DNA of 48,058 bases from a virus (lineage: Duplodnaviria; Caudoviricetes). The notes below the pieces were generated by a model. The model was given only the letters and a program-made list of their open reading frames with translations, did no database searches and was not told the DNA's origin. The position numbers and the translations under genes are program-made. Positions 4,726 to 48,058 of the stretch are shown piece after piece. The stretch spans positions 1 through 48,058 of IMG/VR virus record IMGVR_UViG_3300049926_000003; one strand, 5' to 3'. Each line of letters opens with the position of its first letter. Within the stretch, counting starts at the first letter, position 1.

Positions 4726-4762
4726 GAACAAAAGGGGAACAAACAGGGAACATAGTGAGAAC
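4726..4762. promoter_or_regulatory. Tandem alphaproteobacterial LexA (SOS) boxes
   Basis: GAAC at 4726, 4737, 4748 and 4759: GAAC-N7-GAAC-N7-GAAC-N7-GAAC in an intergenic gap. Confidence 0.75.
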
Positions 4763-4768
4763 AGACAT

Positions 4769-4784
4769 TGGCCAGTGCTGGCCA
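4769..4784. repeat. Palindromic motif copy 5
   Basis: Exact; lies between the SOS boxes and the GGCT ribosome-binding site. Confidence 0.9.
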
Positions 4785-4799
4785 AGATTGGAGAGCGTG

Positions 4800-5225
4800 A
4801 TGAAGAACGACATGGTATTCGTCTATGGGACGCTCCGGAAAGGCGAGAGGGCCGATCTGTCGAAGCATTCCCATCAATTCTGTGTCGACTTCATCAGTCC
4901 TGATGCGATTAATGGTTCGCTCTACCATCTCGGGGCATTTCCGGGGGTGAAGATACCCGACGGGCTAGTCGGCTTCGACGGGTCTAAGCCAGTCGTCAGG
5001 GGTGAGACATTTCGCATTCGAGATGCATCTATCATGGTTTTGCTGGATCACTACGAGGGTTATCCCACGCTATATGACCGGATGAAGGTCACGACGGAGC
5101 GAGGCCGCGAGGCTTGGGTCTATACCTACAACCCTCCGGTGCATCCAGAACAGCTCATTCCCTCCGGGGACTGGAAAAACAGCGACAAGGTTGTCGAAAT
5201 GGCCCACCGGGGCGTCATTCGTTAA
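4800..5225 (+). CDS. Gamma-glutamylcyclotransferase (AIG2/YtfP-like)
   Basis: VFVYGTLRKG, LGAFPG, V.GE, LDHYEGYP.LY.R, AWVY, SGDW motifs. Confidence 0.92.
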   Translation: MKNDMVFVYGTLRKGERADLSKHSHQFCVDFISPDAINGSLYHLGAFPGVKIPDGLVGFDGSKPVVRGETFRIRDASIMVLLDHYEGYPTLYDRMKVTTERGREAWVYTYNPPVHPEQLIPSGDWKNSDKVVEMAHRGVIR

Positions 5226-5237
5226 TCGGAGGAAGAA

Positions 5238-5720
5238 ATGCGTCTTTATCATCACGGCGGCAAATGCTGCGGCATCAAAATCATCGAGGGTTTTGGCATC
5301 AATCCGACAGGCAATGTCGATCCCAACCATGATACGAACCCCGTTCCAGATGTCCGTGGAATGATAAATAGTGTCACCGACGGAACACTCCCCTGCATGG
5401 GGAAGGAATTCTTTCTAGACGAGGCTCCGCGTGAGACCTATATCCAACGTCTTGATCGACTGATTAATTTCGCCATTAAGAAGAGGTCTGGCGGCCTTCT
5501 TGAGGCGGTTTTGGCGACGGCTTCTTGTCCTTGTTGCAACCAAGTTGCAGTTTGGGGCCCTATTCTCGAAGAGCGGGGCTTCACTCCGGTGACGACGTTC
5601 TACAACAGCAACTCCGGCAACAAGTGCACGGTCTACCACAAGATCGTTACCAGCAAGACGAAACCCGTTCCGAAGACCTATGAAGAGGTCAAGAAGAAAG
5701 CTCCGGTGAACAAGGCATAA
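5238..5720 (+). CDS. Cys-rich hypothetical protein, possible GNAT-like fold
   Basis: CCGIKIIEGF near the N-terminus; LEERGF..VTTFYN near the C-terminus. Confidence 0.75.
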   Translation: MRLYHHGGKCCGIKIIEGFGINPTGNVDPNHDTNPVPDVRGMINSVTDGTLPCMGKEFFLDEAPRETYIQRLDRLINFAIKKRSGGLLEAVLATASCPCCNQVAVWGPILEERGFTPVTTFYNSNSGNKCTVYHKIVTSKTKPVPKTYEEVKKKAPVNKA

Positions 5721-5731
5721 GGAGAACACCC

Positions 5732-6541
5732 ATGAATAACCGTAACCTCGGCATCGAGTTCAATCGTTTCGGCGGGACTATCCCGACGGCCTACTGGGGA
5801 TGCTGCGCCGCCTGCATCATCCAGAATTTCCACTGCGACCCCGATGCCAAGGCGTCGATCCAGATCGTCGAGGGGGACGGCGGCTCACCGATGACGAACG
5901 ACGCAGGCGAATTGATCTTCGCCGGTCCGACGAACGCCGACATCTTTCGGCAGCGTCTCCGCATCGGGACATTCAGCAGCCGGGATATGCCGAACCACGC
6001 CTTCTTCGCCATTCTGACGAAGAACCAGCTCAACACCACCCACGGCAAGCGGTGGCTAGCCCTTCTCAAAGAGAACGGCTTCGAGTTCATTCGGACGGTA
6101 TCGAATTCCGTCTATGGCGGGGCGGGTCTCTCCGACACCCCCGGTGACAATGCTCCGAACTATGTTTTTGGGATGTTCCGGAACATCGGGACGGGCTTCA
6201 TCACCGACCCGTTCACTCCGCCGAAGGAATGGACTGACCTCCCGTCGGTCATGCCCGAGGCGTGGGAGACTGTCGGCCTGACGCCGGAGATCACCGAGAA
6301 GCAACGCGCCGCCCACAAGAAGGCGTGGGAGGCACTCGGCCCGGCGAAGTTCATGACCGAGGCCGAACTCGTTGCAGCCGAAGTCCCTGTGATTATGGCA
6401 GGGCTCCGTTCGTCATTCCCGCCGCAGGCCAAGGCAGCCCGCGAGGAAGCCAAGGGTCTGATCGCCAAGGCGACAGCTACTCTCAAGGCTACCGGGACAC
6501 CCACCAGCGCAGCCGTTCCTTCCCCGCCAGCAACGGCTTGA
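5732..6541 (+). CDS. Hypothetical protein, apparent paralog of the upstream gene
   Basis: CCAACIIQNF and LKENGFEFIRTVSN; AAGGAG SD. Confidence 0.8.
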   Translation: MNNRNLGIEFNRFGGTIPTAYWGCCAACIIQNFHCDPDAKASIQIVEGDGGSPMTNDAGELIFAGPTNADIFRQRLRIGTFSSRDMPNHAFFAILTKNQLNTTHGKRWLALLKENGFEFIRTVSNSVYGGAGLSDTPGDNAPNYVFGMFRNIGTGFITDPFTPPKEWTDLPSVMPEAWETVGLTPEITEKQRAAHKKAWEALGPAKFMTEAELVAAEVPVIMAGLRSSFPPQAKAAREEAKGLIAKATATLKATGTPTSAAVPSPPATA

Positions 6542-6583
6542 CGCGGCATGTAGGGTCGCGCCCTACTAGGTTAGTGGTAACCC

Positions 6584-6653
6584 GAATTGCAGCGAGCCTT
6601 TCTTCGTTATCGGCGAGCGAACCACCGAGGGGGTGCAATGCCCCCACAGTTTC
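6584..6653 (+). ncRNA. Degenerate tRNA-like cloverleaf
   Basis: GAATTG/CAGTTT acceptor-like stem, CGAG/TTCG D-like stem, TCGG/CCGA stem, GGGGG-TGCAATG-CCCCC T-arm. Confidence 0.4.
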
Positions 6654-6668
6654 ACAGGAGAATTCGCC

Positions 6669-7313
6669 GTGACTGCCAAGAAAACAACCCCGAAAGTCAA
6701 AGCCGCCGTCCCTTCCAAGGTCATCCGTCGTCTTTCGTCTGTCTGTCTTATCAACTCGGTGTCATTCATAGCACTCGGTGACGAGGCCAAGACGAAACTC
6801 CTAGCCGAGGCGGCGGGTCTTCCTATCGAGTTCACTGACTTCGCCCAGATGACGGATAAGAAGGCCATTCGTGAAGGACTTCTGGCAGGACATGACGTCG
6901 AACGGCGGCTTGAATTCAACGGCATCATACTCAATGATGTCGAGCGGGCGGCAATCAAGGCGGTCAATCCGATCTTGGAAAAGATCAACGGCATTGGCCC
7001 GAACTATTCTTGGGCCGCTAAGTTTGAAAACTCAGGAGGCAACATTAACTGTGGAGCCATGAGAGTAAGGCGGGGGGGACACACAGTTGGTAAGAAAACA
7101 GCAGAAGCAGTCTGGAAACGGGCGTCGCGGCATTGGTCTGGTGGGCCAGCAGGTTTTACCTTCAGCATCAAGGCAGACGGATCGGGTTATAATAACAGAA
7201 CGGTCTCAATTGACAAAAATTCCGTGACCATCGGCTGTCAAACAATTCCTCGCGCGGAGGTTGAATACATCGCCCGTCACTATGGATGGGAGCCGAATGT
7301 ATTCGTCGGTTGA
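6669..7313 (+). CDS. Hypothetical protein
   Basis: GTG start after AGGAG SD. Confidence 0.75.
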   Translation: MTAKKTTPKVKAAVPSKVIRRLSSVCLINSVSFIALGDEAKTKLLAEAAGLPIEFTDFAQMTDKKAIREGLLAGHDVERRLEFNGIILNDVERAAIKAVNPILEKINGIGPNYSWAAKFENSGGNINCGAMRVRRGGHTVGKKTAEAVWKRASRHWSGGPAGFTFSIKADGSGYNNRTVSIDKNSVTIGCQTIPRAEVEYIARHYGWEPNVFVG

Positions 7314-7333
7314 GTTCAACAAGGAGAGTGAAG

Positions 7334-7711
7334 ATGAATATCAATGAAAAGGTTGCCGAGCGTCTGACTTCTGTCGCTCCTGTCGTCGAGGATCGGATCG
7401 TCGATCTCCTCGCCGAGAAGGAAATCAGTCGTCGGGTCGAGATCATTACGCAGGGTCTCGCCCGTCTCGAAGAAATGGACAAGCAGAGCCGTCGCTTTGA
7501 ACGTCCCGATGTCGAGACGTTTACGGCGGACGGCGCGGCGGCACCGGCTGTCTTCTCGAAGGCTCGGTTCGAGGAGAAGAACAAACACGCCGACGGTATC
7601 GCCAAGCTCACGGCGTCGATCGACAAGGCCCTCGACGGCGATACTTCCGAGCTCGCCAAAATACTTCAGCAGAAGGGCGGCAAGGGGGGTGACAAGGGCG
7701 ACGACGAATGA
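7334..7711 (+). CDS. Hypothetical helical protein
   Basis: AAGGAG SD; charged helical composition. Confidence 0.75.
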   Translation: MNINEKVAERLTSVAPVVEDRIVDLLAEKEISRRVEIITQGLARLEEMDKQSRRFERPDVETFTADGAAAPAVFSKARFEEKNKHADGIAKLTASIDKALDGDTSELAKILQQKGGKGGDKGDDE

Positions 7712-7965
7712 CCGTCGCTTCGCTCCGGGCTAAAGTAGAAGCCCGCGTTCAAGGCGGGATTGTCTTGGCTCTGTTCAACAGGGCTAAGGCAGTCCATGCC
7801 AAGAGGGCGTGGCGTCATTGCCCCTGTGACTATTGTGTCGTTAAGCGTAGGTTCACGGAAAGTCTGTCATTGACTCCTCTCCATATACCGAGAGAGGACA
7901 GAGAGTTCATCCGTGAGACGAGACGGGTATTCAGCCGAGAAAGATTGGCTGAGGAATTCCAATAG
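7708..7965 (+). CDS. Hypothetical protein with CPCDYC motif
   Basis: ATGA overlap with the preceding gene. Confidence 0.6.
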   Translation: MTVASLRAKVEARVQGGIVLALFNRAKAVHAKRAWRHCPCDYCVVKRRFTESLSLTPLHIPREDREFIRETRRVFSRERLAEEFQ

Positions 7966-8356
7966 CATTGCATCTGTCATGGTCGTTTAAGAAGGGGTTC
8001 AACTCCCCTCGCCTCTGGACCGTCATTCGGTGTCCAACGGTAGTGTCTGGCAATGTCGGTGGGCGGTAAGGAAGAACCTTAATGTCGGGCCCCGATCCGA
8101 CACCCACCGTAAGTCATCCAGCCTATTACGCCCCGCGCCCCTTAACTCACTCAACGAGAGTGGGCCAGCGTCTTCCACACATGACGGCCTAATCCGCCGC
8201 CCGGAACGACAAGGTTGGGAAAGGGAAACGCAGAGGTCGTTGCAGATGCAGTATGCCGTAGCCCTGCTCTTTGTGGGGGACGGCTCCGCCGATTAGCACT
8301 CGGCACCGGGGTAGGGGGGAGAGCAGGCTCTTTTCGAGAAGCCCTTCCCCCTATCT
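7965..8356 (+). ncRNA. Candidate large structured non-coding RNA
   Basis: ~430 bp gap without a credible ORF; nested helices, canonical T-arm AGGGG-TTCAACT-CCCCT, two 3' hairpins. Confidence 0.6.
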
Positions 8357-8361
8357 AACCT

Positions 8362-8377
8362 TGGCCAGTGCTGGCCA
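8362..8377. repeat. Palindromic motif copy 6
   Basis: Exact; 20 bp upstream of the first gene of the amide-ligase operon. Confidence 0.9.
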
Positions 8378-8397
8378 ATTCCCTTTCAGGAGATGTC

Positions 8398-8553
8398 ATG
8401 TCCCGCAAGAAAGCATCAGTCTGGATACTAGAGAGCGCGAAATACGCAATCTGGTGGGACAGACCGCAAGAGGCTCGACAACTCCTCATGAGAGTCGCCG
8501 AACGAGAAGTCATCGAATACAAAGAGGAGAAGATCAATGGGCAAGGCCGGTAA
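8398..8553 (+). CDS. Small hypothetical protein, 51 aa
   Basis: AGGAG SD; overlaps the start of the next gene. Confidence 0.6.
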   Translation: MSRKKASVWILESAKYAIWWDRPQEARQLLMRVAEREVIEYKEEKINGQGR

Positions 8554-9946
8554 CTCCCGTCGCAAGGCCGCGAAGAAGGCACCGTCTTCAAAGGTCACTG
8601 TCGGTTCATTCGACCCCGTGACAGGGGAGATATTCGATATCGACGGCAACGAGGTATCGGCGGCGTATGCCGGGCCCACCCTATTCGACGGGGAAGAGCG
8701 GGGCTCACCCGTCATGGAGACGGAGTGGGAGCGGGCGAGACGGGCAGGACAGGATGTCCTCAGACGGAATATCCAAGACGCCCTCGACGCCGAGGCCCTT
8801 GAATACGAGGAGAAAGTCCTCGGCAAGCGCGGCCTCCCCGACGGCGTGGCACCACAGATCATCCTCGATCATCTAGGGCATGTCATGCCTGAAATCCGAG
8901 ACAGACTGAAAGGAAAGAATATGCCTGTCCCCGCAGGAACGATTGACATCCCCAGTGTCCCCAAGCCTCTAGACTTTAAGCCGGGGGATTACAAAGATAG
9001 GAATGTCATCCTTCTCGGTGCCCCGAAGTCAGGCCGGGCGGATGACATTGCAATGAGGGCACGGCATAAGGTAACGCTTATGCGGGACCACATGCTGAAG
9101 TTCCCGACGCTCTGCCTTTCAATCCATGTCGAAGGTCCGTCGTGGGAAGAACCGGCTTTCGCCAAGCTATTCGCCAGAGCAGGCTGCCAGCGGGCAGACA
9201 GTCTCATGGAAGCCGATCTCGTTATCTTCACAGGAGGTGTCGATGTCGATCCGCAACTATACGGGGAAGTCCCTCACCCCAAGACGCATATTGATCCCGA
9301 ACGAGACACCAGTGATATCAACGCTTATATGCGGTGCCTTGATAATGGCATCCCGATGCTCGGTATCTGTCGTGGGGCCCAGTTTCTCCATGTCATGAAC
9401 GGCGGCAAGCTCTACCAAGATATCGACGGGCATACCGGGGACCATAATATGTGGGACCTCCAAGGTAAGATCATGATCGAGAATGTCTCGTCGGTCCATC
9501 ATCAGTCTGTCATCCCGAATATATCGGAGGGGATGAAGATCATCGCGACGACCCGTAAGTCGACGCAGCGGTGGAGAAATCCCACTGACTGCAACACTAC
9601 AGGCAAGATCGATGTCGAGGCGTTCTTCTATCCCGAGACATGCGTCATCGGTATCCAAGGGCATCCGGAGTATTCCGGCTACTCTGCCTTCGCGCGATGG
9701 ACATTAGAGCTAATCGACCAGCTCGTCGTCACCAACCCCGATATCGACTGGGTAGGAGGTCATCGCAGGATCAAGCCAGAGCTCCTAGCTGAAAGGCAAG
9801 GAGTCATCCAAGCATCTATCATACCACCGGCAATCAACGTGACACCGCCGGAGAAGTCACCCGCGAAGCTCGCTGATACGCCAGAGGCTAAGCCCCCACG
9901 GAAGAAGCTCACGGTGCCCGCTGCGAGCAAGAAGGAGTCGAAGTAA
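8537..9946 (+). CDS. Class I glutamine amidotransferase / peptidase C26 (PuuD-like gamma-glutamyl hydrolase) with long N-terminal extension
   Basis: TGGVDVDPQLYGE, LGICRGAQ (nucleophile Cys), S.HHQ, GIQGHPE (His-Glu). Confidence 0.9.
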   Translation: MGKAGNSRRKAAKKAPSSKVTVGSFDPVTGEIFDIDGNEVSAAYAGPTLFDGEERGSPVMETEWERARRAGQDVLRRNIQDALDAEALEYEEKVLGKRGLPDGVAPQIILDHLGHVMPEIRDRLKGKNMPVPAGTIDIPSVPKPLDFKPGDYKDRNVILLGAPKSGRADDIAMRARHKVTLMRDHMLKFPTLCLSIHVEGPSWEEPAFAKLFARAGCQRADSLMEADLVIFTGGVDVDPQLYGEVPHPKTHIDPERDTSDINAYMRCLDNGIPMLGICRGAQFLHVMNGGKLYQDIDGHTGDHNMWDLQGKIMIENVSSVHHQSVIPNISEGMKIIATTRKSTQRWRNPTDCNTTGKIDVEAFFYPETCVIGIQGHPEYSGYSAFARWTLELIDQLVVTNPDIDWVGGHRRIKPELLAERQGVIQASIIPPAINVTPPEKSPAKLADTPEAKPPRKKLTVPAASKKESK

Positions 9947-11175
9947 TGTGCGGTCTCGTAGGCATCGTAGGCGATCTCGCCTATAAAGACGAAGCTACCA
10001 TGCAAAGGCTGCTTCTGTTCGATTATATTCGCGGGACTGACGCGACTGGTTTGGCCGTGATCCGCAACACCGGAGAGACCTTTCTCGCCAAGACGAACAG
10101 CCATCCCATTGATCTGTTCGACATGGGTCGTTTCAAGACGGCCCTCAACGGCAACAACTCGAAGGTCTTTATCGGGCATAATCGCGCGGCGACCTCGGGG
10201 GATAAGTCGTCTAGCAGTGCCCATCCGTTTATGTGTGACCATATCATCGGGGCACACAACGGGACTCTCGAATACCGGACTTTCCGGAAGCTCGAAGAAG
10301 CCCTCGGCGAGACATTCTCCGTCGATAGCAACGCCCTCATGGCGGCTATTGCGAAGTTCGGCATCGACAAGACGGTCAAGATGCTCGAAGACGGCAAGAC
10401 CTTCGAGAAGGGAGCGTGGTCTCTTGTCTGGTATGACATGAACGACGGAACCTTCAACATGCTCAGAAACAAATGGCGACCGATGTGGTATGCCTTTGAA
10501 GAGGGCTTCAAGAAGATGTTCTTTGCTTCCGAATGGTGGATGATCGACGCCGCCATGAGGTCAAGCGTCAACGGCTACAAGCTCCATATCGAGCACGAGA
10601 AGGACGCCGATGGAACTGAACAGGCGTATCGCTTCTTCCAGACATCGGAGAACATCCATTACAAATTCGACGTCGATGCTCTGAAGAAAGGCAGCGACAA
10701 GCGACCTAAGCCCAAAGCGAGGTCCCTCGCCGCTCCTGTTCCGAAGGAGCCTGAGCCGGAGGCCCGCGACCCTTTCGGGCGAGAATACCCGATTGGATTT
10801 GGCCCGGTCCCGAGTGGCAAAACGACGAACATCGAACTTCTCCCTACAGCGAACCAGAACACGGGGACCCGGCATTCTGGTGGGAAGCGATCGCGGACCC
10901 ATCCGAACGAACCGAAGAAAATAGCAGTTATCCACCTTTTGGGTGATATCGGCAAGCCTTATGCAGGCTATGTCCCCTACGAGAAGTTCGAGGCCGTCGC
11001 TCGTCATGGCTGCAATTGGTGCCAGAAGAAGGTCCCGTATGGGACGAAGGGCGTCACTATCTACGAGAAGTGCGACACCTTCCTCTGTCCTGAGTGTTCG
11101 GGATATTCCCCGGCGACTGAAAACCCCGAGACCCGTGTCGTGATTGAAAGCTCGACTATGGACAAGCTTGCTTAG
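9946..11175 (+). CDS. Class II (Ntn) glutamine amidotransferase with C-terminal Zn ribbon
   Basis: MCGLVG, RG.DATG, GHNRAAT, AHPF, HNGTL; CNWC...CPEC. Confidence 0.92.
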   Translation: MCGLVGIVGDLAYKDEATMQRLLLFDYIRGTDATGLAVIRNTGETFLAKTNSHPIDLFDMGRFKTALNGNNSKVFIGHNRAATSGDKSSSSAHPFMCDHIIGAHNGTLEYRTFRKLEEALGETFSVDSNALMAAIAKFGIDKTVKMLEDGKTFEKGAWSLVWYDMNDGTFNMLRNKWRPMWYAFEEGFKKMFFASEWWMIDAAMRSSVNGYKLHIEHEKDADGTEQAYRFFQTSENIHYKFDVDALKKGSDKRPKPKARSLAAPVPKEPEPEARDPFGREYPIGFGPVPSGKTTNIELLPTANQNTGTRHSGGKRSRTHPNEPKKIAVIHLLGDIGKPYAGYVPYEKFEAVARHGCNWCQKKVPYGTKGVTIYEKCDTFLCPECSGYSPATENPETRVVIESSTMDKLA

Positions 11176-11184
11176 GAGAGGCCC

Positions 11185-12138
11185 GTGCCGACATTTGAAC
11201 AAAGCTTGGAAGCCATTGCTGCTCTAGATGAGGTAGCCAAGGCTTTCGATCCATTCACCAGAAGACTAGTAAGAAAGGAACGAGAAGTGGCAGTTCCGTT
11301 GCCCGGCAGAGAAGGCTTTACCTTCGGCTGCGATCCCGAGTTATTCGTCAAGAACGCCAAGGGCGTCCATGTCTCCGCCGCCGGACTCATTCCGGGGACG
11401 AAGGAAAGCCCTCATGCCGTCGAATTCGGTGCCGTTCAAGTCGATGGAATGGCAGCGGAATTCAACATCGAACCCGTTGACAATTTCAAGGACTGGAACC
11501 ACCATATCGAGAAGGTCATGGAGCAACTTGGAGCGATGCTCCCGAAGGGTTATACCCTCGACGCCGTTCCGTCCGTGACCTTTGACAAGAAAGTCTTCGA
11601 TAAGGCCCCGGACGAAGCGAGGCAACTCGGCTGCTCGCCTGACTTCGACGCATGGACGGGGGATGTCAATCCGCCGCCGCATGACCCTGATAACCCTTGT
11701 CTCCGCTGTGCCGGGGGACATATCCATGTCGGTTGGAGAAAAACCGGCGATATCGATCTTCAGCATGTCATGGCTTGCCGTGACTTCGGGAAGCAGCTCG
11801 ATTGGTTCCTCGGCGGGTGGGCCTTGAAGATGGACCAAGACGCCCTTCGTCGCCGTCTCTACGGGAAGGCCGGGTCCATCCGATACAAGGAATACGGGAT
11901 GGAGTATCGTGTCTTATCGAACTTCTGGGTGACGACAAGAGATCGAAGGCTCGCTGTGTGGAACCGTCTCATTGAGGCGATCAACATGATGCAGTCGAAG
12001 GCCGTCTCGGACAGCATCGCCAAGAAGAACCATGATCTTCTTCAGATATCAATTAACAATTCGGAGATGGATGCGACGCTTCTGCGAACCTTCCGGTATC
12101 CTCTGATGACCATAGACCAGAATTACCGCCAGTTCTAA
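11185..12138 (+). CDS. phiEco32-like COOH-NH2 ligase type 2
   Basis: GCDPELF, QVDGMAAEFNI, GCSPDFDAW, RCAGGHIHVG, RRRLYGKAG, EYRVLSNFW. Confidence 0.9.
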   Translation: MPTFEQSLEAIAALDEVAKAFDPFTRRLVRKEREVAVPLPGREGFTFGCDPELFVKNAKGVHVSAAGLIPGTKESPHAVEFGAVQVDGMAAEFNIEPVDNFKDWNHHIEKVMEQLGAMLPKGYTLDAVPSVTFDKKVFDKAPDEARQLGCSPDFDAWTGDVNPPPHDPDNPCLRCAGGHIHVGWRKTGDIDLQHVMACRDFGKQLDWFLGGWALKMDQDALRRRLYGKAGSIRYKEYGMEYRVLSNFWVTTRDRRLAVWNRLIEAINMMQSKAVSDSIAKKNHDLLQISINNSEMDATLLRTFRYPLMTIDQNYRQF

Positions 12139-12150
12139 TCGGAGCATGTC

Positions 12151-12906
12151 ATGCAACATCCTAATTTCTATGAAAGCCTAGACGAGGCAATTATTCGTCT
12201 CCTCAGGACCGTCGTGTTGTATGACGGAGAACCGTTTTATGTCCTAGCGTTGGCCAATCACATGACGGACAACATCATTAGGATTTATCTCGATCCTATC
12301 GGTGTCAAGGAAAAACGGAGGTCGCTCCCGGAACTCGATAACTACCAACCGAATAGTGCCTCGGTGGGACCGTTGCTCGACGCCTATATGGAAACAGAGG
12401 CCGGGAAGAAGGCCGGGTTGCTACGGAAGCAACTGAATTCGCCGCTATTCCAGAAATTCCGACCGTTTCCTCTGGGGATGTGTAATACCAAGACTGGGGC
12501 GGTCTATCTCGAACGGCAGCCGCAGCGTCAGACACAGCAAGGGCTGATGCGGAACATGGTTCTTGAACATCGGATTTCTCTTGACAATAGCTCAAGCAAG
12601 GGGTATGGTCCGAATGTCAGTCTCTTCGGAGAAGAGTTCAAGGCGTGTGTCATGGGGGACTACCCGTCGCCCCAGACCGTCTTCAAGGCTCTGCTCGACC
12701 CATCCGTAGCGAATAACTCCCTCGGCTTCCATCGACACTTCGCCTTGGTCCGAGGGCCGATTGATATGCTATTCCTCGCCTATAAGCAGGATGTCGTCGG
12801 TGTCTTGCCTGTCGGCGACTTCTCAATGCTCAGGCTAGGTCGTAAATTCCAGCATGTCCGAGAGGCAGTATTTGAACTCGGGCTATTTTCCAGCATCGTA
12901 ATGTGA
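12151..12906 (+). CDS. Conserved hypothetical protein of the amide-ligase cluster
   Basis: Position between the ligases; LGMCN, YL.R.P.R...QG, YPS, FHRHFAL pattern. Confidence 0.8.
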   Translation: MQHPNFYESLDEAIIRLLRTVVLYDGEPFYVLALANHMTDNIIRIYLDPIGVKEKRRSLPELDNYQPNSASVGPLLDAYMETEAGKKAGLLRKQLNSPLFQKFRPFPLGMCNTKTGAVYLERQPQRQTQQGLMRNMVLEHRISLDNSSSKGYGPNVSLFGEEFKACVMGDYPSPQTVFKALLDPSVANNSLGFHRHFALVRGPIDMLFLAYKQDVVGVLPVGDFSMLRLGRKFQHVREAVFELGLFSSIVM

Positions 12907-12915
12907 GGAAGTGAA

Positions 12916-14067
12916 ATGTTTGACCCTATCATCAAGAACAAAGACGAGAACGAACCGGGGTTTAACATGGGAGTAATTCTCAGCCGATCTGAGACTAAGG
13001 GTGTCGTCGGCATCGAGATCGAGATCGAGGGGAAGAAACTCCCCAAGAGCGACGAGACCCCGCCGCCGTGGACTTACACCGTCGATCATTCTCTGCGGGG
13101 AGAGGAGAGCGGGGAATATGTCCTCGGCAAACCGATTGAGTTCGATGGCGTCGAACCGGCACTGAAGAAGCTCTGGTCTAAGTTCGGCAAGATGGGAACG
13201 GAGTTCGATGACTCGAACAGGACTAGCGTCCATGTCCATCTGAACTGTCAGAGCTTCTTCCTCAACCGGCTGACATCATTGGCGGCGTTGTATTTCATTG
13301 TCGAGGAATGTCTCACGGAATGGTGTGGGGACCATCGTGTCGGCAATCTCTTTTGCCTTCGGGCAAAGGACGCACCCGGCATCATCTCGCAGATGAAGAC
13401 TTTCATCAAGTATGAGGGGGCTATCCCCCTCAACGAGCAGTCTCTACATTACGCCGGGCTGAATGCCGCAGCCCTCATGAAATACGGCTCAATGGAAATT
13501 CGATCATTGAGGGGTTGTTCCGATCCCGGGACGATCCTATCTTGGATCAAGACGCTTCAGCGATTGTATGAGTTGTCCGCTGAATTCACCGATCCGCGCG
13601 ATATCTGTGCCCGTTTCTCGGCGGAAGGGCCTCTGTCGTTCTTCTCGACTATTCTCGGGGACATGGCTCCGGTTATCCGAGAGGGTATCCCCTTCAACGA
13701 CAGCAAGATCAGAGACAGTATGTTCGAGGGCATTCGCCTCGCCCAAGATATCTGTTACTGTCGCAACTGGGAAAAATATCAGGCCGTTGACTTCAAGGCC
13801 GACCCCTTCGGGCGAGACCCCCGGAAGCTCATAAAGAAGCTAGGCTTAGGAACACCTCCGGCACCTCCGGGAGCACAGGCGGCTTACTATGAACCGGAAC
13901 CGGAATATGACGGTCCTGACGATGAAGCGGAAGGCGGCGTAGAACTTACTATGGCTGCTATGAACCAAGCCTCGCCGCAAATAGTCATGAATACGGCAGC
14001 AATGCCAACGCCGGTAATGCCAACCCTTAACCCCGGGCCTCCCGGCACTGTTGAATGGTGGAATTAA
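12916..14067 (+). CDS. Putative amidoligase (glutamine-synthetase-like COOH-NH2 ligase, Amidoligase_2 type)
   Basis: GIEIEIEG, DHSLRG, EYV, TSVHVHLN, YAGLN, EIRSLRG. Confidence 0.88.
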   Translation: MFDPIIKNKDENEPGFNMGVILSRSETKGVVGIEIEIEGKKLPKSDETPPPWTYTVDHSLRGEESGEYVLGKPIEFDGVEPALKKLWSKFGKMGTEFDDSNRTSVHVHLNCQSFFLNRLTSLAALYFIVEECLTEWCGDHRVGNLFCLRAKDAPGIISQMKTFIKYEGAIPLNEQSLHYAGLNAAALMKYGSMEIRSLRGCSDPGTILSWIKTLQRLYELSAEFTDPRDICARFSAEGPLSFFSTILGDMAPVIREGIPFNDSKIRDSMFEGIRLAQDICYCRNWEKYQAVDFKADPFGRDPRKLIKKLGLGTPPAPPGAQAAYYEPEPEYDGPDDEAEGGVELTMAAMNQASPQIVMNTAAMPTPVMPTLNPGPPGTVEWWN

Positions 14068-14082
14068 ACAAGGAGAGAGAAG

Positions 14083-14949
14083 ATGTCTGAATTCTATATC
14101 TACCCGTATATCCAAGCTTCTGAAGGGGCCAAGGCCCTAGCAGAGGAGCTCGACGGGAAGCGTATCCTCCGCGAGGGTAGCAAGTATCGCAACAAGAAGG
14201 GCGACGTCATCATCAACTGGGGGGCGAGTGATTGCCCGTATCCCAACGCCCTCAACGCCGATATCCGGGCGACGATTGACAAGGCTGTATTCTTCAAGCG
14301 GCTCGCCGGACGGGGACTCACGCCGAAGTTCACTGACACCAAGGCTGCGGCCCTCGGTGCCCTGTCGTTCCCGATCTTCTGCCGGACCCTGACGCAGGGA
14401 CACGACGGGGAGGGTATCGTTGTCGCCGACAATGCCGACCAGATCGTCCCGGCGAAGCTCTATGTCGAGGGCATCAACAAGACGAGCGAGTATCGCATCC
14501 ATGTCGGGCGGCTTACTGACGGAACGACATCTATCATAGGAAGCCAGAAGAAGGTCCACGAGAACATCGAGGGCACAGACTCTCGTGTGTGGGTCGGCGA
14601 AAGCACCCGCTTCATCTGGAAGGTCGACGGATTGCCGGTGGTAGTGCCGACGAAGGTCATGGATGTCGTCAAGGAAGTCTTTACTTTCTTCCCTGAACTA
14701 ACCTTCGGGGCGTTCGATGTCGTCTATGACAGCGTGGCCCAGAGGGCATATGTCATCGAGATCAATTCCGCACCGATGAAGTCGCCGGAGACTACCCGTC
14801 GATACGGGGAGTTCTTCAAGAAGGTCGCTCCGCCGAAGCCCTCGCTGACTATCAAGGGGGCTCTCGAAGTCGCCCTGACGCTGTTCGGCAGCCAGAATTC
14901 CCAGTGGAAGACCGAGGCCGAGGCCGCCATTGCCGAAGGAGTATTATAA
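14083..14949 (+). CDS. ATP-grasp ligase (RimK-like)
   Basis: IINWG, GHDGEGIVV, EYRIHV, FGAFDV, VIEINSAP. Confidence 0.88.
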   Translation: MSEFYIYPYIQASEGAKALAEELDGKRILREGSKYRNKKGDVIINWGASDCPYPNALNADIRATIDKAVFFKRLAGRGLTPKFTDTKAAALGALSFPIFCRTLTQGHDGEGIVVADNADQIVPAKLYVEGINKTSEYRIHVGRLTDGTTSIIGSQKKVHENIEGTDSRVWVGESTRFIWKVDGLPVVVPTKVMDVVKEVFTFFPELTFGAFDVVYDSVAQRAYVIEINSAPMKSPETTRRYGEFFKKVAPPKPSLTIKGALEVALTLFGSQNSQWKTEAEAAIAEGVL

Positions 14950-15731: not shown

Positions 15732-15806
15732 ACCAATATAAGGTTAGCAGCGGTAAATCCCCCCCCCCTATTGGTCAATAAACCCGCCAGAAGAAGTGGG
15801 AATGAC

Positions 15807-17462
15807 ATGAGCGAATTCCAGAAGCACGGGCCCTGCGAGGCTTGTGGGTCTTCTGACGGAGTAGGCTGGTATGACGATGGTCACGGTGTCTGCTTTGTCT
15901 GTGAGAAATACTACGGGTCAAAAGACTCCAATAAGAAAGAGACAAGAAAATTGTCCGAGAAACCCACAGGACCGATTACGCCGGTCACTACAGTCTTTCG
16001 CGCCATACCAAAGCGTGGCTTGACGGAAGCATCCATCAAGAAATTCTCCATTGACATCAATATGGACAAGGATAAGGATGTCGCTCACCGGTATCCTTAC
16101 TTCAAGGACGGCCAGCACGTCGCCAATAAAGTCCGTAAGCGGTCGGAGAAAGCCTTCTACTGGGAAGGAAACCCCCGAAATGCAGAGCTCTTTGGTCAGC
16201 ACCTTTTCCCCGCCGGTTCAGCCAAGGCTGTTACCGTGGTCGAAGGGGAGCTCGACGCCCCCTCCGGATGGCTCCTACTGGGCAGCCGTTATCCTGTTGT
16301 CGGCTTGCCTTCTGTCGGCCATGCGGTAGCGGCAGTCAAGACGAACTTCGAGTATCTCAATTCATTCGATGAAGTCGTCCTATGCCTCGATGCAGACGAA
16401 GGCCGAGCGAGAGAAGACGGAACCGTCGCCTATGCAGGGCAGGACACCGCCAAGAAGATAGCCGAGATGTTTGCCCCGGGTAAGTGCCGCATCCTCACAC
16501 TGGAACACGGTAAAGACCCTAATGAATATCTTCAAAATAACCTCGACCCTAAGGTCTTCACCTCAGAATGGTGGAAAGCCCCCCGCTTTCGTCCAGACGG
16601 GCTGAAGGCCGGTAGTTCGATGTGGGACGAGATCGTCAATCGACCGAGCCATTTCTCTATCCCCTATCCTTGGGGACCCTTGAACAGCAAGACCTTCGGT
16701 ATCAGGCTCTCGGAGGCTGTCCTACTAATGGCGGACACAGGCGTCGGTAAGACGTCGATCTTCAAGGAAATCGAGCACCATCTCCTGACATCGCCGGAAG
16801 TCATCGAGAAGGGATACGGAGTCGGGGTTCTTCATCTAGAGGAACCTAACTTCGATACCGCTCTCGGACTTATGTCAATTGAAAACGACAAGCCGTATCA
16901 TCTCCCGGATACTCCTAAGACCACGGAGGAACTACGGTCGGCATTCGACAAGGTTCTCAACAACGAGAGGGCGATCTTCTACGATCACTTTGGGTCGAAC
17001 GAGATTGACGAGATACTCGCGAAGGTCCGCTTCATGTCTGTCATGGGCTGCAAATATATCTTCATCGACCATCTCTCGATCATTGTCTCCGACCAATCGG
17101 GAGACGAAAGGAAGCAACTTGACGAGATTTCGACAAAGCTCAAGACGCTTACTATGGAACTTAACATTGCAGTATTCTGTGTCATCCACACAAACCGCGA
17201 CGGTCAGGCGCGCGGTTCTGCAGGACCAGAGAAGGTGGCTAATATCCATCTATCTCTACACAGGGACAAAAAGGACCCCGATCCTTGGCGTCGCAATGTC
17301 CTCAAGATTGAGATTGAGAAAAATCGCTTCTCGGGTCGGACAGGCCCTTGTTTATGGCTTTTCTATGATGAAATCACTGGACGTCTCGTCGAACTCGATG
17401 ACGTCGCGATTACTAAATATGAGGAAGGACTAAGCATCAATGACTCAGACAAGCCTTTCTAG
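15807..17462 (+). CDS. T7 gp4-like DNA primase-helicase
   Basis: Zn domain CEACGSSD...CFVC, TOPRIM VEGELDA and LDAD, SF4 helicase TGVGKT, IFIDHL, KNRFSG. Confidence 0.96.
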   Translation: MSEFQKHGPCEACGSSDGVGWYDDGHGVCFVCEKYYGSKDSNKKETRKLSEKPTGPITPVTTVFRAIPKRGLTEASIKKFSIDINMDKDKDVAHRYPYFKDGQHVANKVRKRSEKAFYWEGNPRNAELFGQHLFPAGSAKAVTVVEGELDAPSGWLLLGSRYPVVGLPSVGHAVAAVKTNFEYLNSFDEVVLCLDADEGRAREDGTVAYAGQDTAKKIAEMFAPGKCRILTLEHGKDPNEYLQNNLDPKVFTSEWWKAPRFRPDGLKAGSSMWDEIVNRPSHFSIPYPWGPLNSKTFGIRLSEAVLLMADTGVGKTSIFKEIEHHLLTSPEVIEKGYGVGVLHLEEPNFDTALGLMSIENDKPYHLPDTPKTTEELRSAFDKVLNNERAIFYDHFGSNEIDEILAKVRFMSVMGCKYIFIDHLSIIVSDQSGDERKQLDEISTKLKTLTMELNIAVFCVIHTNRDGQARGSAGPEKVANIHLSLHRDKKDPDPWRRNVLKIEIEKNRFSGRTGPCLWLFYDEITGRLVELDDVAITKYEEGLSINDSDKPF

Positions 17463-18018
17463 CGACAAAACTTGGGTAGCCGCTGACCCCCACTTTGGGC
17501 ACAAGAACATAATCTTGTTCAAGAACGCCGACAGCGGCAAAATGCGTCCTTGGGATGACATCGATAAGATGGATGCCGATCTTATCCAAAATTGGAACGA
17601 TACGGTATCTCCTGATGACCGGGTATATCTCCTCGGTGACGTAACCTTCACTGCGGCGAACATGAAGAAGTATATCCCCCAACTCAACGGACGCATCTGT
17701 CTAATCCCCGGCAACCACGAGCCAACGAAGATGCGGAAGTATTTCGATCTATTCGACGATGTTCGAGGCTATGTCCAGAGGAAAGGTTTCATCATGTCGC
17801 ACATCCCTCTGCATCCCGAGAGCATGGCGCGATGGGGTCTGAATATCCACGGTCATCTACATGCCAATAAGGTTCGCAATGCCGACGGCACTCCCGATCT
17901 ACGCTACTATTGCGTCTCGATGGAGCATACGGATTATCGCCCCATTGATCTCAACGAAATTCTAGAGAGGCACAACCGCCGTGTATCTAACCCCGACCAA
18001 TTTGCATTGGGCCTGTGA
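17440..18018 (+). CDS. Calcineurin-like metallophosphoesterase
   Basis: DPHFGH, LLGDV, GNHE, SHIP, HGHLH. Confidence 0.92.
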   Translation: MTQTSLSSDKTWVAADPHFGHKNIILFKNADSGKMRPWDDIDKMDADLIQNWNDTVSPDDRVYLLGDVTFTAANMKKYIPQLNGRICLIPGNHEPTKMRKYFDLFDDVRGYVQRKGFIMSHIPLHPESMARWGLNIHGHLHANKVRNADGTPDLRYYCVSMEHTDYRPIDLNEILERHNRRVSNPDQFALGL

Positions 18019-19867
18019 TATCGAGGCAGATGGTCTATTAGAAACGGCGACTACTATATGGTGCGCCACGGCCATCAACTGTATCACCAAAGAGAAGAAG
18101 GAATTCAGAGATGCTGAGGCGTTTCGGACGTTCATTGAAAAACATCCTGATATTGTGCTCGTTGGGCATAACTTTCTTGCTTATGATCTTGTTATGCTCA
18201 ACCGCTTTTGGAAATGTTCTATTGGCGTTAGCCGTGTTGTCGATACATTCGTCTTAAGTCAGCTATACAATCCGGGATATCCCAAGCCCATTGGCTGTAA
18301 GAAAGGGCCGCATAGCCTAGAAGCATGGGGCATTCGTCTCCGTTACAAGAAGGGAGACTTCGATGATTTCAGCGAGTTTACGGAGGACATGCTACGATAT
18401 TGTATGCGTGATACTGTCCTTACTGCTCTTCTTTTTCATCGGCTTAGCACTAGGATGCGGGAAGTAGGGTTCACTGAAGAAGGCTGCGAGCTAGAACACA
18501 AGGCATGGAATATCATTCAGAATAAGCAGCGTCGCAACGGCTTCCCATTTGACTACGAAAGGGCCCATGCCCTGTATGTCGCGCTTCGCGCCAGAGAAGA
18601 AGAGCTCAAGGCCGAGATTTACACCCTATGGCCTCCTAAATTCGAGGTCGTCGCGACCTTCGCCAAGGCGTTCAAGAAGAACGGCGAGAAGACTGCCGTC
18701 TATGCCCGGCACCTAGAGCAATATCCTAAGCTCATTCTCCGCGAAGACGGAGGATACGACGCCATTGACTGGGTTGCCTTCAATCTCGGCAGTCCTGCTC
18801 AACGCATCGAGAAGCTCACAGAACTAGGATGGACTTCCGTTAAGAAAACGAAGAAGGGCAATCCGAAGATCGATGAAGACGCCCTTCTGGATTATGCCGA
18901 GGTCTCGGGAAAGCCTGAGGTCAAGGCACTAGCCAAGTGGATTGTCATCAATTCCCGGGCGAATATGATTAAGACATGGCTCGACGCCTATGATGAAAAA
19001 ACAGGAGCGATACATGGCAAACTATTCATTGCGGCGACGCTCCGCTACCGTCATTCTAATCCTAATTCTGCTAATATACCGGCTGTTCGGCTGAAGAAGA
19101 ACGAGCAGGGGGAAGATGTCATCCAGTATGGTGAAGCCGGGGCATGGACATATGAATGCCGGGACCTCTTCACTAAAGGTAAGTCTGACGATTATGTCCT
19201 AGTAGGTGTTGACGGAACAGGCATCCAGAACCGATGCTTAATTCATGGTCTCATTAAGACCGTCGGCGAAGAGCAAGTCAAGCCGTTCATGGAACTTTCC
19301 CTCCGAGGGGATATCCACAAGCACAACATCGACGTCCTAGGTTTGGCTAACAAGGCCGCCGCGAAGAAGTTCTACTATTCTCTAATGATGGGAGCCGGTG
19401 GAGCCCTCCTCGCGGCAGATCAGGCCCAGTTCGGAACAAAGCTCACGGCCAAAGAGGGAACAGCCCTCCGTGATGCCATGATAGCGTCAATCCCGGGGTT
19501 CAACGCCCTCATTAAAGCCCTTCAGAAAGAGCTCCGGGATACCGGTAGAATTCGTCTATGCGACGGGACACCTATTCTAGTTCCGTCTGACCACATGGTC
19601 ATTCCGTATCTACTACAAGGTGACGAGAGTCGCCTCATGAAGAAAGCGATGGTGTTACTCGATGCCGACCTTCGACGATCTCGACTTGATTCGAGAAAAG
19701 TGGCAGATATCCACGATGAATGGCAATATATTGTCAAACTGGGAGATGTCGAAGCTTTCATTAGACTGGCTCTTGCAGTCTTTCCCAGAGCAGGCGAGTC
19801 TTTCGGATATAAAATCCCTATTGATGGTGATGCGAAAGTAGGATTGACATGGGCAGAGACGCACTAA
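17981..19867 (+). CDS. Family A (T7-like) DNA polymerase with 3'-5' exonuclease
   Basis: Exo DIE, HN...YD, YCMRD; polymerase motifs A (DGTGIQNR), B (KAAAKKFYY..MG) and C (HDE). Confidence 0.95.
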   Translation: MYLTPTNLHWACDIEADGLLETATTIWCATAINCITKEKKEFRDAEAFRTFIEKHPDIVLVGHNFLAYDLVMLNRFWKCSIGVSRVVDTFVLSQLYNPGYPKPIGCKKGPHSLEAWGIRLRYKKGDFDDFSEFTEDMLRYCMRDTVLTALLFHRLSTRMREVGFTEEGCELEHKAWNIIQNKQRRNGFPFDYERAHALYVALRAREEELKAEIYTLWPPKFEVVATFAKAFKKNGEKTAVYARHLEQYPKLILREDGGYDAIDWVAFNLGSPAQRIEKLTELGWTSVKKTKKGNPKIDEDALLDYAEVSGKPEVKALAKWIVINSRANMIKTWLDAYDEKTGAIHGKLFIAATLRYRHSNPNSANIPAVRLKKNEQGEDVIQYGEAGAWTYECRDLFTKGKSDDYVLVGVDGTGIQNRCLIHGLIKTVGEEQVKPFMELSLRGDIHKHNIDVLGLANKAAAKKFYYSLMMGAGGALLAADQAQFGTKLTAKEGTALRDAMIASIPGFNALIKALQKELRDTGRIRLCDGTPILVPSDHMVIPYLLQGDESRLMKKAMVLLDADLRRSRLDSRKVADIHDEWQYIVKLGDVEAFIRLALAVFPRAGESFGYKIPIDGDAKVGLTWAETH

Positions 19868-22165: not shown

Positions 22166-22511
22166 AAGTAACCCACAGAAGGCCAGAGCTGCGTATCTAC
22201 TTCGCGTCTATGGTATCACTGTAGACCAATACAACGAACTCCTAGAGAGACAGGGAGGTTCATGTGCTCTCTGCAACAAGACTCCTGAACAAGAAGGACA
22301 AGCGCTTGCTGTCGATCATGACCACGCATCTAGAGAGGTCAGAGGGCTGCTTTGCCGTTACTGCAATCACAGAGTCATCGGGCGACACCGAGACCCGGAT
22401 TTACTTAGAAGGATGGCTGGATATCTCGAAAGAGGAACTGGCTGGTATACACCCGTAAAGAGAAGGCGGAAAACGCCTCGGAAGGTCAAGTCAAAGAATG
22501 TCAAATCCTAA
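22134..22511 (+). CDS. Recombination endonuclease VII
   Basis: YGIT...Q, CALC, AVDHDH, RGLLCRYCN. Confidence 0.9.
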   Translation: MRKIRVARPRESNPQKARAAYLLRVYGITVDQYNELLERQGGSCALCNKTPEQEGQALAVDHDHASREVRGLLCRYCNHRVIGRHRDPDLLRRMAGYLERGTGWYTPVKRRRKTPRKVKSKNVKS

Positions 22512-23217
22512 ACAGAAAATCCTAGTTCTCGATATCGAGTGGCGTCCTACTAAGGCGTATGTATGGGGTGCATGGCAGGAGAATATCTACCCCGAGAAGA
22601 TCATCGAGCATGGCGGCCTCCTCTGCGTCGGAGCTAAGTGGCTCGGTGAGAAAGAGACTTTCCTGTTCTCTGAATGGGAACACGGTCATCAGGGAATGCT
22701 CGATAAAATCCACGAGATGCTGTCGTTCGCCGATGGTGTCATTGGCTTCAACTCGAATAAGTATGACCTACCCAAGCTCGAAGGCGAGTTCGTAATCGCC
22801 GGGATGACACCGCCCCCTGCCCCGACATCGATCGATCTAATCAAGACGATCAAGAAGTTCGGGCTCTTCATGAACAGATTGGCTTTCGTCGGTCCCCTCA
22901 TGGGCGTCGGCAAGAAGCTCGAACACGAGGGCATGGCCCTGTGGGTCAAGGTCATGGCGGGTGACGAAGTAGCCCAAAACAAGATGTCTCGGTATTGTAT
23001 CCAAGACGTCAAGATGACGGAGAAGTTATACCTCCGTATCCGTCCGTTCATCCGCAACCATCCCCATATGGGACGACAGGGGGCGAATGAATGCGGTGCC
23101 TGCGGCAGTAAGCATCTTCATAGCCGTGGAACCCGTAGGACTCGTATCTACAAAATTCAGCGTATCCAGTGTCAGGGCTGTGGCTCGTGGCAGGATGGGA
23201 AGCGAAGCAAGATATAA
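22498..23217 (+). CDS. DEDD / RNase H-like 3'-5' exonuclease with C-terminal Zn ribbon
   Basis: LVLDIE, FN...YDL, YCIQDV; CGAC...CQGC. Confidence 0.85.
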   Translation: MSNPKQKILVLDIEWRPTKAYVWGAWQENIYPEKIIEHGGLLCVGAKWLGEKETFLFSEWEHGHQGMLDKIHEMLSFADGVIGFNSNKYDLPKLEGEFVIAGMTPPPAPTSIDLIKTIKKFGLFMNRLAFVGPLMGVGKKLEHEGMALWVKVMAGDEVAQNKMSRYCIQDVKMTEKLYLRIRPFIRNHPHMGRQGANECGACGSKHLHSRGTRRTRIYKIQRIQCQGCGSWQDGKRSKI

Positions 23218-23375
23218 TGGACCAAGAGACTAAAGAGAGGCTGATCGACTTCTTCACTAGCGCCGAGTTAGTCGAGTATCTAGCCTTGCCTGTCAGAGAA
23301 ATCATCGAACGCTTCGAGGATGAAATCTCGGAGGCCCTTGATGATATCGAGGAGTTAATGAATGTCAAGCACTAA
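23217..23375 (+). CDS. Small acidic protein, 52 aa
   Basis: TAATG coupling. Confidence 0.65.
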   Translation: MDQETKERLIDFFTSAELVEYLALPVREIIERFEDEISEALDDIEELMNVKH

Positions 23376-24033
23376 GGTTCTGTATCTTATTGGCTCACTC
23401 CGTAATCCCCGCGTCCCTGAATTAGCCGCTAGGCTCCGAAAGGAATATCCCGATGTCGAAGTCTTCGATGACTGGTTTGCCGCCGGGGCCGAGGCCGACG
23501 ACGAATGGAAGTCCTACGAGCAAGCCCGCTCCCGCTCCTACGAGGAAGCCCTTAATGGATATGCTGCGCGACATGTTTTTGATTTTGACCGCAGCCACCT
23601 TGACCGGGCTACTCACGTCCTACTGGTGCTTCCCGCCGGTAAATCGGGACACATGGAAGTCATGTATGGAGAATACGGTGCAAAGCTCAAACCAAGAACG
23701 GCAATCCTACTAGACCCCGAAGATGTCCGTTGGGACGTCATGTATCAATTCATACCGACAATTCTGTCGAACGACGACGCCATAGGAGAGTGGCTCAATG
23801 AAGAACAGCCTTCCGGAAGAGGACAGCCAAAGGGGGAAATTCCCAATGGCGGATGGCCTGCTGGACTATTTTCCCAACGCACTAGCAGAGGTATCTCTAG
23901 TTTCGTTTTTGGGGAACCAGAAGCACAACCCCGGGCAGCCGATGCACTGGGCAAGGGGGAAATCGACAGACCACAGAAACAAGATATTAAGGCACCTTGT
24001 CGATGCCGGGAAGAAAGACAGCCAAGGCGTTAG
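23362..24033 (+). CDS. Nucleoside 2-deoxyribosyltransferase-like protein
   Basis: LYLIGS, F..D...L..A..VLLVLPAGKSGHME.. pattern; C-terminal ~78 codons overlap the next gene. Confidence 0.75.
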   Translation: MSSTKVLYLIGSLRNPRVPELAARLRKEYPDVEVFDDWFAAGAEADDEWKSYEQARSRSYEEALNGYAARHVFDFDRSHLDRATHVLLVLPAGKSGHMEVMYGEYGAKLKPRTAILLDPEDVRWDVMYQFIPTILSNDDAIGEWLNEEQPSGRGQPKGEIPNGGWPAGLFSQRTSRGISSFVFGEPEAQPRAADALGKGEIDRPQKQDIKAPCRCREERQPRR

Positions 24034-24136
24034 ACACTCCGCCTATGTCGCGTGGAGGGCTCTAGCCAATCTCCAAGAGGAGCTAGAACGAGACGAAGGA
24101 TATCCCCTCTCTAGAGCATCGAAGGAGCCAGAGTGA
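23798..24136 (+). CDS. dATP/dGTP diphosphohydrolase N-terminal domain (DUF5664-like) protein
   Basis: YFPNALAEV..V...GNQKHNPG..W, ILRHL, H.A..AWRALA. Confidence 0.8.
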   Translation: MKNSLPEEDSQRGKFPMADGLLDYFPNALAEVSLVSFLGNQKHNPGQPMHWARGKSTDHRNKILRHLVDAGKKDSQGVRHSAYVAWRALANLQEELERDEGYPLSRASKEPE

Positions 24137-47917: not shown

Positions 47918-48032
47918 TTTCGTTTCTAAGGTGCCTTAAAATCGTTTTTGTAATTTGATTTTGCAAATTTGAAATTTTTCGTTAGTGGTGTGAGCTCCCT
48001 AGACAGTCCGCCACTAGTCTCGCGTTCGACCC
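47918..48032. repeat. Right copy of direct terminal repeat
   Basis: Identical to 1-115. Confidence 0.9.
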
Positions 48033-48058
48033 ACCCCCCCCCCCCCCCGGGGGGTGCC

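Follow-up and report, generated by a model that had tools for sequence, protein, structure and literature searches.

In family A DNA polymerases, Glu710 and Tyr766 (Klenow numbering, used below for family-wide positions) have been called universally conserved (PMC3715850). In that study (Hohlbein et al. 2013) the Klenow mutants E710Q, E710A and Y766A were mutators with poor fingers-closing, and E710Q incorporated nucleotides slowly, with a Kd2 for A-dTTP of 230 versus 0.83 µM. The K2 for A-rUTP was 0.056 for E710Q, 0.083 for the wild type and 0.16 for E710A (Table 1 of PMC3715850). The value is not raised in E710Q, and therefore Gln keeps the rNTP block in that assay. N845A likewise lowers fidelity (PMC10520511). 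In the canonical pocket the carboxylate of the gate residue makes bonds to the Tyr of motif B, the Gln of motif 6 and the Arg of the TGR motif (PMC6158600), and in Bst the residues Q797, R615, E658 and D830 form one electrostatic cluster (PMC10520511). Among natural phage PolA enzymes, DpoZ of phiVC8 and Wayne-like phages has lost the Tyr766 hydroxyl, with Phe at this position in both DpoZ clades, and serves a 2-aminoadenine genome together with a PurZ pathway (PMC8599892, PMC10201439). T7 gp5 belongs to cluster 5 (cd08643) of Czernecki et al. 2023, within which the thioredoxin-binding motif is not constant (PMC10201439).

The window, which is the whole 48,058-nt stretch of DNA analysed here, is a complete 48-kb phage genome with a terminal repeat. 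Its sequence was present in two soil metagenome runs, and no RNA run among the listed runs contained it. The left arm carries the primase-helicase, nucleases and a phiEco32-like amidoligase cluster, and the right arm the portal, terminase and capsid genes. The features referred to below are as follows.

1-141 and 47918-48058: direct terminal repeat of 141 nt, copies 96% identical
4755-14949, + strand: phiEco32-like cluster (Pfam/PHROGs matches)
15771..17462, + strand: T7-gp4-like primase-helicase (phrog_239, E 7e-140), in the same replication module as the polymerase
17981..19867, + strand: T7-gp5-like family A DNA polymerase of 628 aa, 3'-5' exonuclease plus polymerase (PF00476, phrog_17)
22498-23217, + strand: stand-alone 3'-5' exonuclease-like gene (phrog_403, E 4e-67)
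23362..23805, + strand: NDT/MilB/DNPH1-fold protein, ~148 conserved aa, from fold search; the ORF continues to 24033
23798-24136, + strand: protein resembling the PF18909 dATP/dGTP diphosphohydrolase cluster; overlaps the 23362-24033 ORF at the latter's tail
37578-38772: degenerate repeats, spaced at 69/135 nt, within the gene of a minor tail protein

The phiEco32-like cluster contains a gamma-glutamyl cyclotransferase, class I and class II glutamine amidotransferases, a COOH.NH2 ligase, an amidoligase and an ATP-grasp-type protein, and a C/G homopolymer run lies near the right end of the window. The gene at 22498-23217 is a second 3'-5' exonuclease-like gene besides the polymerase's own intact exonuclease, and some relatives have a metallophosphoesterase there. 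Matches were sought for 28 left-arm ORFs in Pfam and PHROGs, for another 26 in PHROGs, and for one small ORF besides; none of these, out of the 143 frames listed, matched an integrase, RNA polymerase or PurZ, or any known enzyme of base modification. The lack of an integrase match among the scanned ORFs sits well with the remark of the sequence-only reading that Tyr at position 762 is typical of lytic phages (PMC6302109). Four matches came from bacterial genomes (L120, L121, L122 and L123, unrelated GTDB MAGs; three contigs of 46-51 kb and one of 5 kb). Since these contigs, with their phage replication gene, are probably misbinned phage genomes, no host was drawn from them.

The polymerase scored 65.2 bits against PF00476 (cut-off 34.3) and is thus a family A member. 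Its AF2 model (117 homologs) had a pLDDT of 93.4 and a Klenow-type fold (Foldseek TM ~0.77 against T7 and 0.70 against Klenow/Bst), with T7 gp5 as the best match in sequence as well as in fold (E 7e-37, ~25% identity). Residues were assigned from a phmmer alignment to gp5 (PDB 6n7w/1skr) that was gapless over motifs A, B and 6, and the Klenow numbering of motif 6 (N845, Q849, A852) was checked via the homolog P0173 against 8oo6. The active-site elements are listed below.

18017..18412, + strand: exonuclease residues D13, E15, D69, Y140 and D144, aligned to T7; intact and invariant in 117/117 rows of alignment A1
19043..19045, + strand: R355, the Arg of the TGR motif (T7 R429, Klenow R668); kept here, and normally paired with the gate carboxylate
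19211..19234, + strand: motif A, with catalytic D411 (T7 D475) at 19211-13 and the steric-gate position Q416 at 19226-28
19352..19393, + strand: motif B / O-helix, with K458, K462, K463, Y466 and M470
19604..19627, + strand: motif 6 helix, with P542 (N611/N845), Q546 (Q615/Q849, kept), D548 and the new glutamate E549
19712..19720, + strand: motif C HDE, H578-D579-E580, intact

In motif A, DGTGIQNR aligned with DASGLELR of T7, which places Q416 at T7 E480 and Klenow E710. In motif B, KAAAKKFYYSLMMG of the window polymerase aligned with RDNAKTFIYGFLYG of T7 gp5, so that K458 corresponds to R518/R754, K462 to K522/K758 (kept), K463 to T523, Y466 to Y526 (position 762) and M470 to Y530/Y766. In motif 6, whose helix spans residues 537-567 in the AF2 model, PYLLQGDE aligned with NTLLQSAG; D548 is T7 A617 and E549, at 19625-27, is T7 G618 and Klenow A852. 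All the replacements named from sequence in the earlier reading (E480 to Q416, R518 to K458, Y530 to M470 and N611 to P542, with Y526 kept as Y466) were recovered in this alignment, as were the intact catalytic Asp and HDE; the earlier reading had missed G618 to E549, A617 to D548 and T523 to K463, the first of which proved to be the obligate partner.

Compared with T7 gp5, the window polymerase thus shares the exonuclease-plus-polymerase layout, the adjacent gp4-like primase-helicase and the residues Tyr 526/762, D475, R429, K522, H506, Q615 and HDE, but differs in E480Q, Y530M, N611P, G618E, A617D, R518K and T523K, and, unlike the T7 genome, the window has no RNA polymerase match among its scanned ORFs. 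With Tyr at 762, active-type DxE exonuclease residues (D13, E15, D69 and D144) and a gp4-type neighbour, it belongs with the T7-like PolA enzymes of cluster 5; the T7 thioredoxin-binding insertion region aligned poorly. It is no DpoZ, having Met470 instead of Phe and no PurZ-like match among the scanned ORFs. The Klenow mutants E710Q, E710A, Y766A and Y766F (PMC3715850) have the same positions changed, and E710Q carries the very same substitution, but these are single engineered changes without a glutamate at 852, whereas the natural form is fixed across whole clades.

Such a pocket might also be the mark of a decayed or inactive polymerase, or of a sequencing or alignment error, and the low identity to T7, only ~25%, would leave some room for this. 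However, over 18989-19636 the window is matched without a single difference by a contig of an independent study (run X2), and Q416 was found in 117/117 Gln-clade proteins of alignment A1, which together rule out a sequencing error. The frame is open, and the ORF is the sole PolA polymerase match in a complete genome. D411, H578-D579-E580, K462, R355 and Q546 were likewise invariant in 117/117 A1 rows, and both codons are in use at the two new positions (34 CAG and 19 CAA at Q416; 36 GAG and 17 GAA at E549; 53 loci). We therefore give hardly any credence to decay or error.

We next consider how the changes occur together in relatives. A protein search gave 547 matches; among the best 120, Q416 was present in all 119 besides the window's own. 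From a set of 119 loci, to which the window's own protein was added (L064 is the window itself), 113 locus proteins were scored, six (L003, L052, L061, L063, L092 and L106) being too incomplete. Gln occupied the 710 position in 72 of them and Glu in 41. D548-E549 accompanied Gln in 72/72 loci, and Gly at 549 with Asn at 542 accompanied Glu in 41/41. At position 766, 52 of the Gln proteins had Met and 20 had Leu, while 36 of the Glu proteins had Tyr and five had Phe. The same association held at greater distance. Of 2,721 representatives at 50% identity the best 150 were taken, 143 of them scorable and seven without a motif; E549 was found in 61/61 Gln representatives and in 0/82 Glu representatives (81 Gly, 1 Ala). 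The share of Gln in this set is no estimate of its frequency, because the query draws its own type. No Gln row among these representatives kept Tyr766, and Asn845 was present in 14/15 Gln/Phe rows versus 0/46 Gln/Leu-Met rows, so that its loss tracks Leu/Met at 766 instead of Gln710 as such. The R355-equivalent Arg was present in 62 of 63 Gln representatives, with one gap. From this covariation, a new Glu at 852 goes obligately with Gln710. The residue before it, at 548, varies among the Gln representatives (F, G, D, A, Y and E), a variety that argues against one transferred block. Three Gln710/Glu852 representatives (P0153, P0186 and P0172) also lack the motif-6 Gln849, having Ala, Ser and Met respectively.

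The sequence-only reading had taken the changes in the pocket to be coupled. The coupling of 710 with 766 held, but R754K was rejected as a member of the set, as 51/72 Gln loci keep Arg754 and five Glu loci have Lys. Lys458 occurred in 21/72 Gln loci, always with Lys463 (21/21), and without Lys463 in the five Glu loci; it is therefore a later, separate change.

For the polymerase tree and the gene-content counts, loci were dereplicated at 90%, giving 84 rows. With six trait columns masked, the Gln rows (54/84) formed one clade with a support of 0.998, the sister of which was made up of Glu/Tyr/Asn/Gly enzymes; a primase tree agreed with the Gln clade at a weaker support of 0.84. A 169-row tree with the trait columns masked, which was quick, carries SH-aLRT support only and does not distinguish gain from loss, showed nine Gln/Glu state changes, at least six of them forced by starred branches, although recombination of the C-terminal segment could mimic some of these origins. 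On this tree E549 followed Gln in 6/6 independent pairs (sign test p=0.031) and the loss of Tyr766 in 5.9/6; loss of Asn845 as an obligate partner of Gln710 across lineages was unsupported (3.5/6 pairs, p=0.25). Two polymerases (L084 and L093) have Met766/Pro845 within a clade that is otherwise Leu/Gly or Leu/Ala, a pattern that suggests either recombination of the C-terminal part or convergence. Judged from sequence, the window's subclade (Met766, Pro845, Asp851, Lys754/Lys759, without RNR) is the most remodelled form among those compared.

Cultured phages carry the swap as well. The Gln/Leu/Glu design was found in five of the nine checked, all of them Cobavirinae (SIO1, ICBM1, P12053L, ICBM2 and CRP-4), and a canonical pocket in HTVC103P, HTVC115P, CHOED and Slicky01. 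ICBM1 and ICBM2 are strictly lytic, the Illumina and PacBio assemblies of ICBM1 are identical, and cobavirus genomes encode a cobalamin RNR and ThyX (PMC6775973). The polymerases of the Cobavirinae (Zobellviridae) resemble that of the window in Gln710, an aliphatic 766, the lack of Asn845 and Glu852, and the genomes are alike in layout, with two arms, no RNA polymerase and short terminal repeats (141 nt in the window). At 766, 845 and 754 they have Leu, Ser/Ala and Arg against Met, Pro and Lys in the window, and polymerase identity is ~31% (31-33% to the nearest cultured phages). The swap in the window's clade, whose sister on the tree is made up of Glu/Tyr/Asn/Gly enzymes, therefore probably arose independently of the one in the Cobavirinae, which lie outside the tree. 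The variant is thus common, which the earlier reading had named as a point against its proposal if the polymerases concerned were characterised and normally selective; no assayed enzyme of this type was found. In the passages of the mostly open papers searched we likewise found neither a report of natural Gln710 or Glu852 nor nucleoside data for a Gln/Glu phage, though Gln in the T7-like cluster might already be visible in the motif logos of PMC10201439 (Figure 3). What the window adds is the Met/Leu branch, its link to the loss of Asn845, the later Lys754/Lys759 pair and the cultured carriers. Since Glu710 and Tyr766, replaced by Q416 and M470 in the window, are lost in 61/143 representatives and in five cultured phages as well, the rule is not universal.

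The swap is shared with cultured marine phages and is repeated in several lineages, and so it is likely a working alternative design. We think that the window polymerase is probably a proofreading replicase that remains selective for dNTPs and copies ordinary DNA, the loss of its gate glutamate being compensated by relocation of the carboxylate. The isosteric Gln at 416 would still block the 2'-OH. E549, which follows Q546 by three residues and P542 by seven on the motif-6 helix, would lie on the same face and take over the charge and the hydrogen bonds to R355 and to the Q416 amide, a placement beside Q416/R355 that rests on helix periodicity and covariation. The Tyr766 hydroxyl would then be partnerless, and the position might drift either to Phe, Asn845 staying in place, or to Leu/Met, in which case Asn845 goes as well. 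R754K together with T523K would be a change of its own, made later in the window's subclade and close to the triphosphate site. Because the single Klenow E710Q is a slow mutator (Kd2 230 versus 0.83 µM; PMC3715850), the compensation must be large. Against this explanation, the window's subclade is changed further (Met, Pro, D548, K458/K463) than the enzymes of the cultured phages, and 11/12 of its loci have lost RNR.

Alternatively, the enzyme may work with a lower insertion fidelity or a shifted error spectrum, masked by the intact exonuclease. The mutator phenotypes of Klenow E710Q and Y766A (PMC3715850) and the lowered fidelity of N845A (PMC10520511) speak for this, Met and Pro would make a looser, non-aromatic pocket floor, and the exonuclease residues are invariant in 117/117 proteins, as reliance on proofreading predicts. 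These residues are, however, kept equally in the Glu sister clade (40/41 rows, one gap). The primase tree, a coarse proxy, showed no rate increase in the window's subclade, with root-to-tip lengths of 2.91-3.12 inside the 2.78-3.27 of the Glu sister clade; the Leu766 primase branch was somewhat longer (3.09-3.48). By a similarly coarse proxy, isolates sharing >96% identity with SIO1 were obtained again after 12 years (PMC6775973). We regard a lowered or shifted fidelity as unlikely.

The sequence-only reading had proposed a pocket adapted to a modified base or sugar, or tolerant of rNTPs, and this could be tied to the loss of RNR and the presence of the NDT-fold gene. Some features of the window would fit: whole-record searches gave no class II RNR match in the window or in four records (an RNR-genome positive control matched); it encodes the NDT/MilB-fold protein, the PF18909-like protein and the amidoligase/glutamine-amidotransferase cluster; and Phe occupies position 766 in both DpoZ clades (PMC8599892, PMC10201439). 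Gene content was counted in the 47/84 dereplicated rows reaching lysis or structural genes. RNR was present in 25/25 Gln/Arg754 loci, 1/12 Gln/Lys754 loci and 8/10 Glu loci. As 25/25 basal Gln loci keep RNR, the pocket arose in phages still making dNTPs, and a link between the pocket change and RNR loss was rejected.

The NDT-like gene was found in 11/12 Gln/Lys, 0/25 Gln/Arg and 2/10 Glu loci (carriers include L002, L004, L005, L013, L025 and L043), and it and class II RNR were mutually exclusive, the 13 loci with the NDT-like gene having no RNR and the 34 with RNR no NDT-like gene. A PDB sequence search with this protein gave no match; the assignment comes from the NDT/MilB/DNPH1 match of the fold search. 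A dCMP deaminase stood alongside it in 10/13 loci, and the gene may be a salvage route replacing RNR. It appears where RNR is missing, with both pocket types, and so is not tied to the pocket; the proposed link was rejected. That between the pocket and the amidoligase cluster was rejected too, the cluster being common to the Glu and Gln clades, and the PF18909-like gene is likewise found in both.

Restriction sites in the window were strongly purged. GTAC occurred 0 times versus 91 expected, CCWGG and 11 six-base palindromes were at 0, some of them G/C-only and some containing A/T, GAATC/GATTC stood at 0.03 of expected and GANTC at 0.25. Of related loci, L005 is without GATC and GTAC, and L069 without GTAC. 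GANTC is the CcrM site, and its depletion would fit an alphaproteobacterial host. By inference, the purging means that the window DNA is open to host restriction enzymes, as for unprotected DNA, though site avoidance may be a relic of the past and not every modification prevents cutting. That G/C-only and A/T-containing sites are both purged counts against a modified base, as does the lack of a match to PurZ or any known base-modification family among the scanned ORFs. Modified dNTP or rNTP tolerance is thus unsupported: the design is carried by a group that encodes RNR and ThyX (PMC6775973), sites are purged, and the K2 of E710Q for rUTP is low, not raised (PMC3715850). We judge an adaptation to modified substrates to be very doubtful, more so than lowered fidelity.

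Returning to the compensated replicase, we suggest, tentatively and as the less probable outcome, that family A polymerases have repeatedly evolved Gln710/Glu852 as a second, general way of selecting nucleotides, that one added glutamate rescues E710Q, and that the window's subclade has a measurably different tolerance of sugar and base analogues. If this were true, the subclade would be an untapped natural scaffold for polymerase engineering. Although Glu710 and Tyr766 are described as essential to fidelity, whole large clades of phages, cultured SIO1 among them, replicate with neither residue. The strict partner residue offers a direct test of the role of the gate carboxylate, charge network versus steric block. 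Changes at E710 or Y766 alone are not to be read as signs of modified DNA, and active-site filters that demand E710/Y766 would drop many real phage polymerases.
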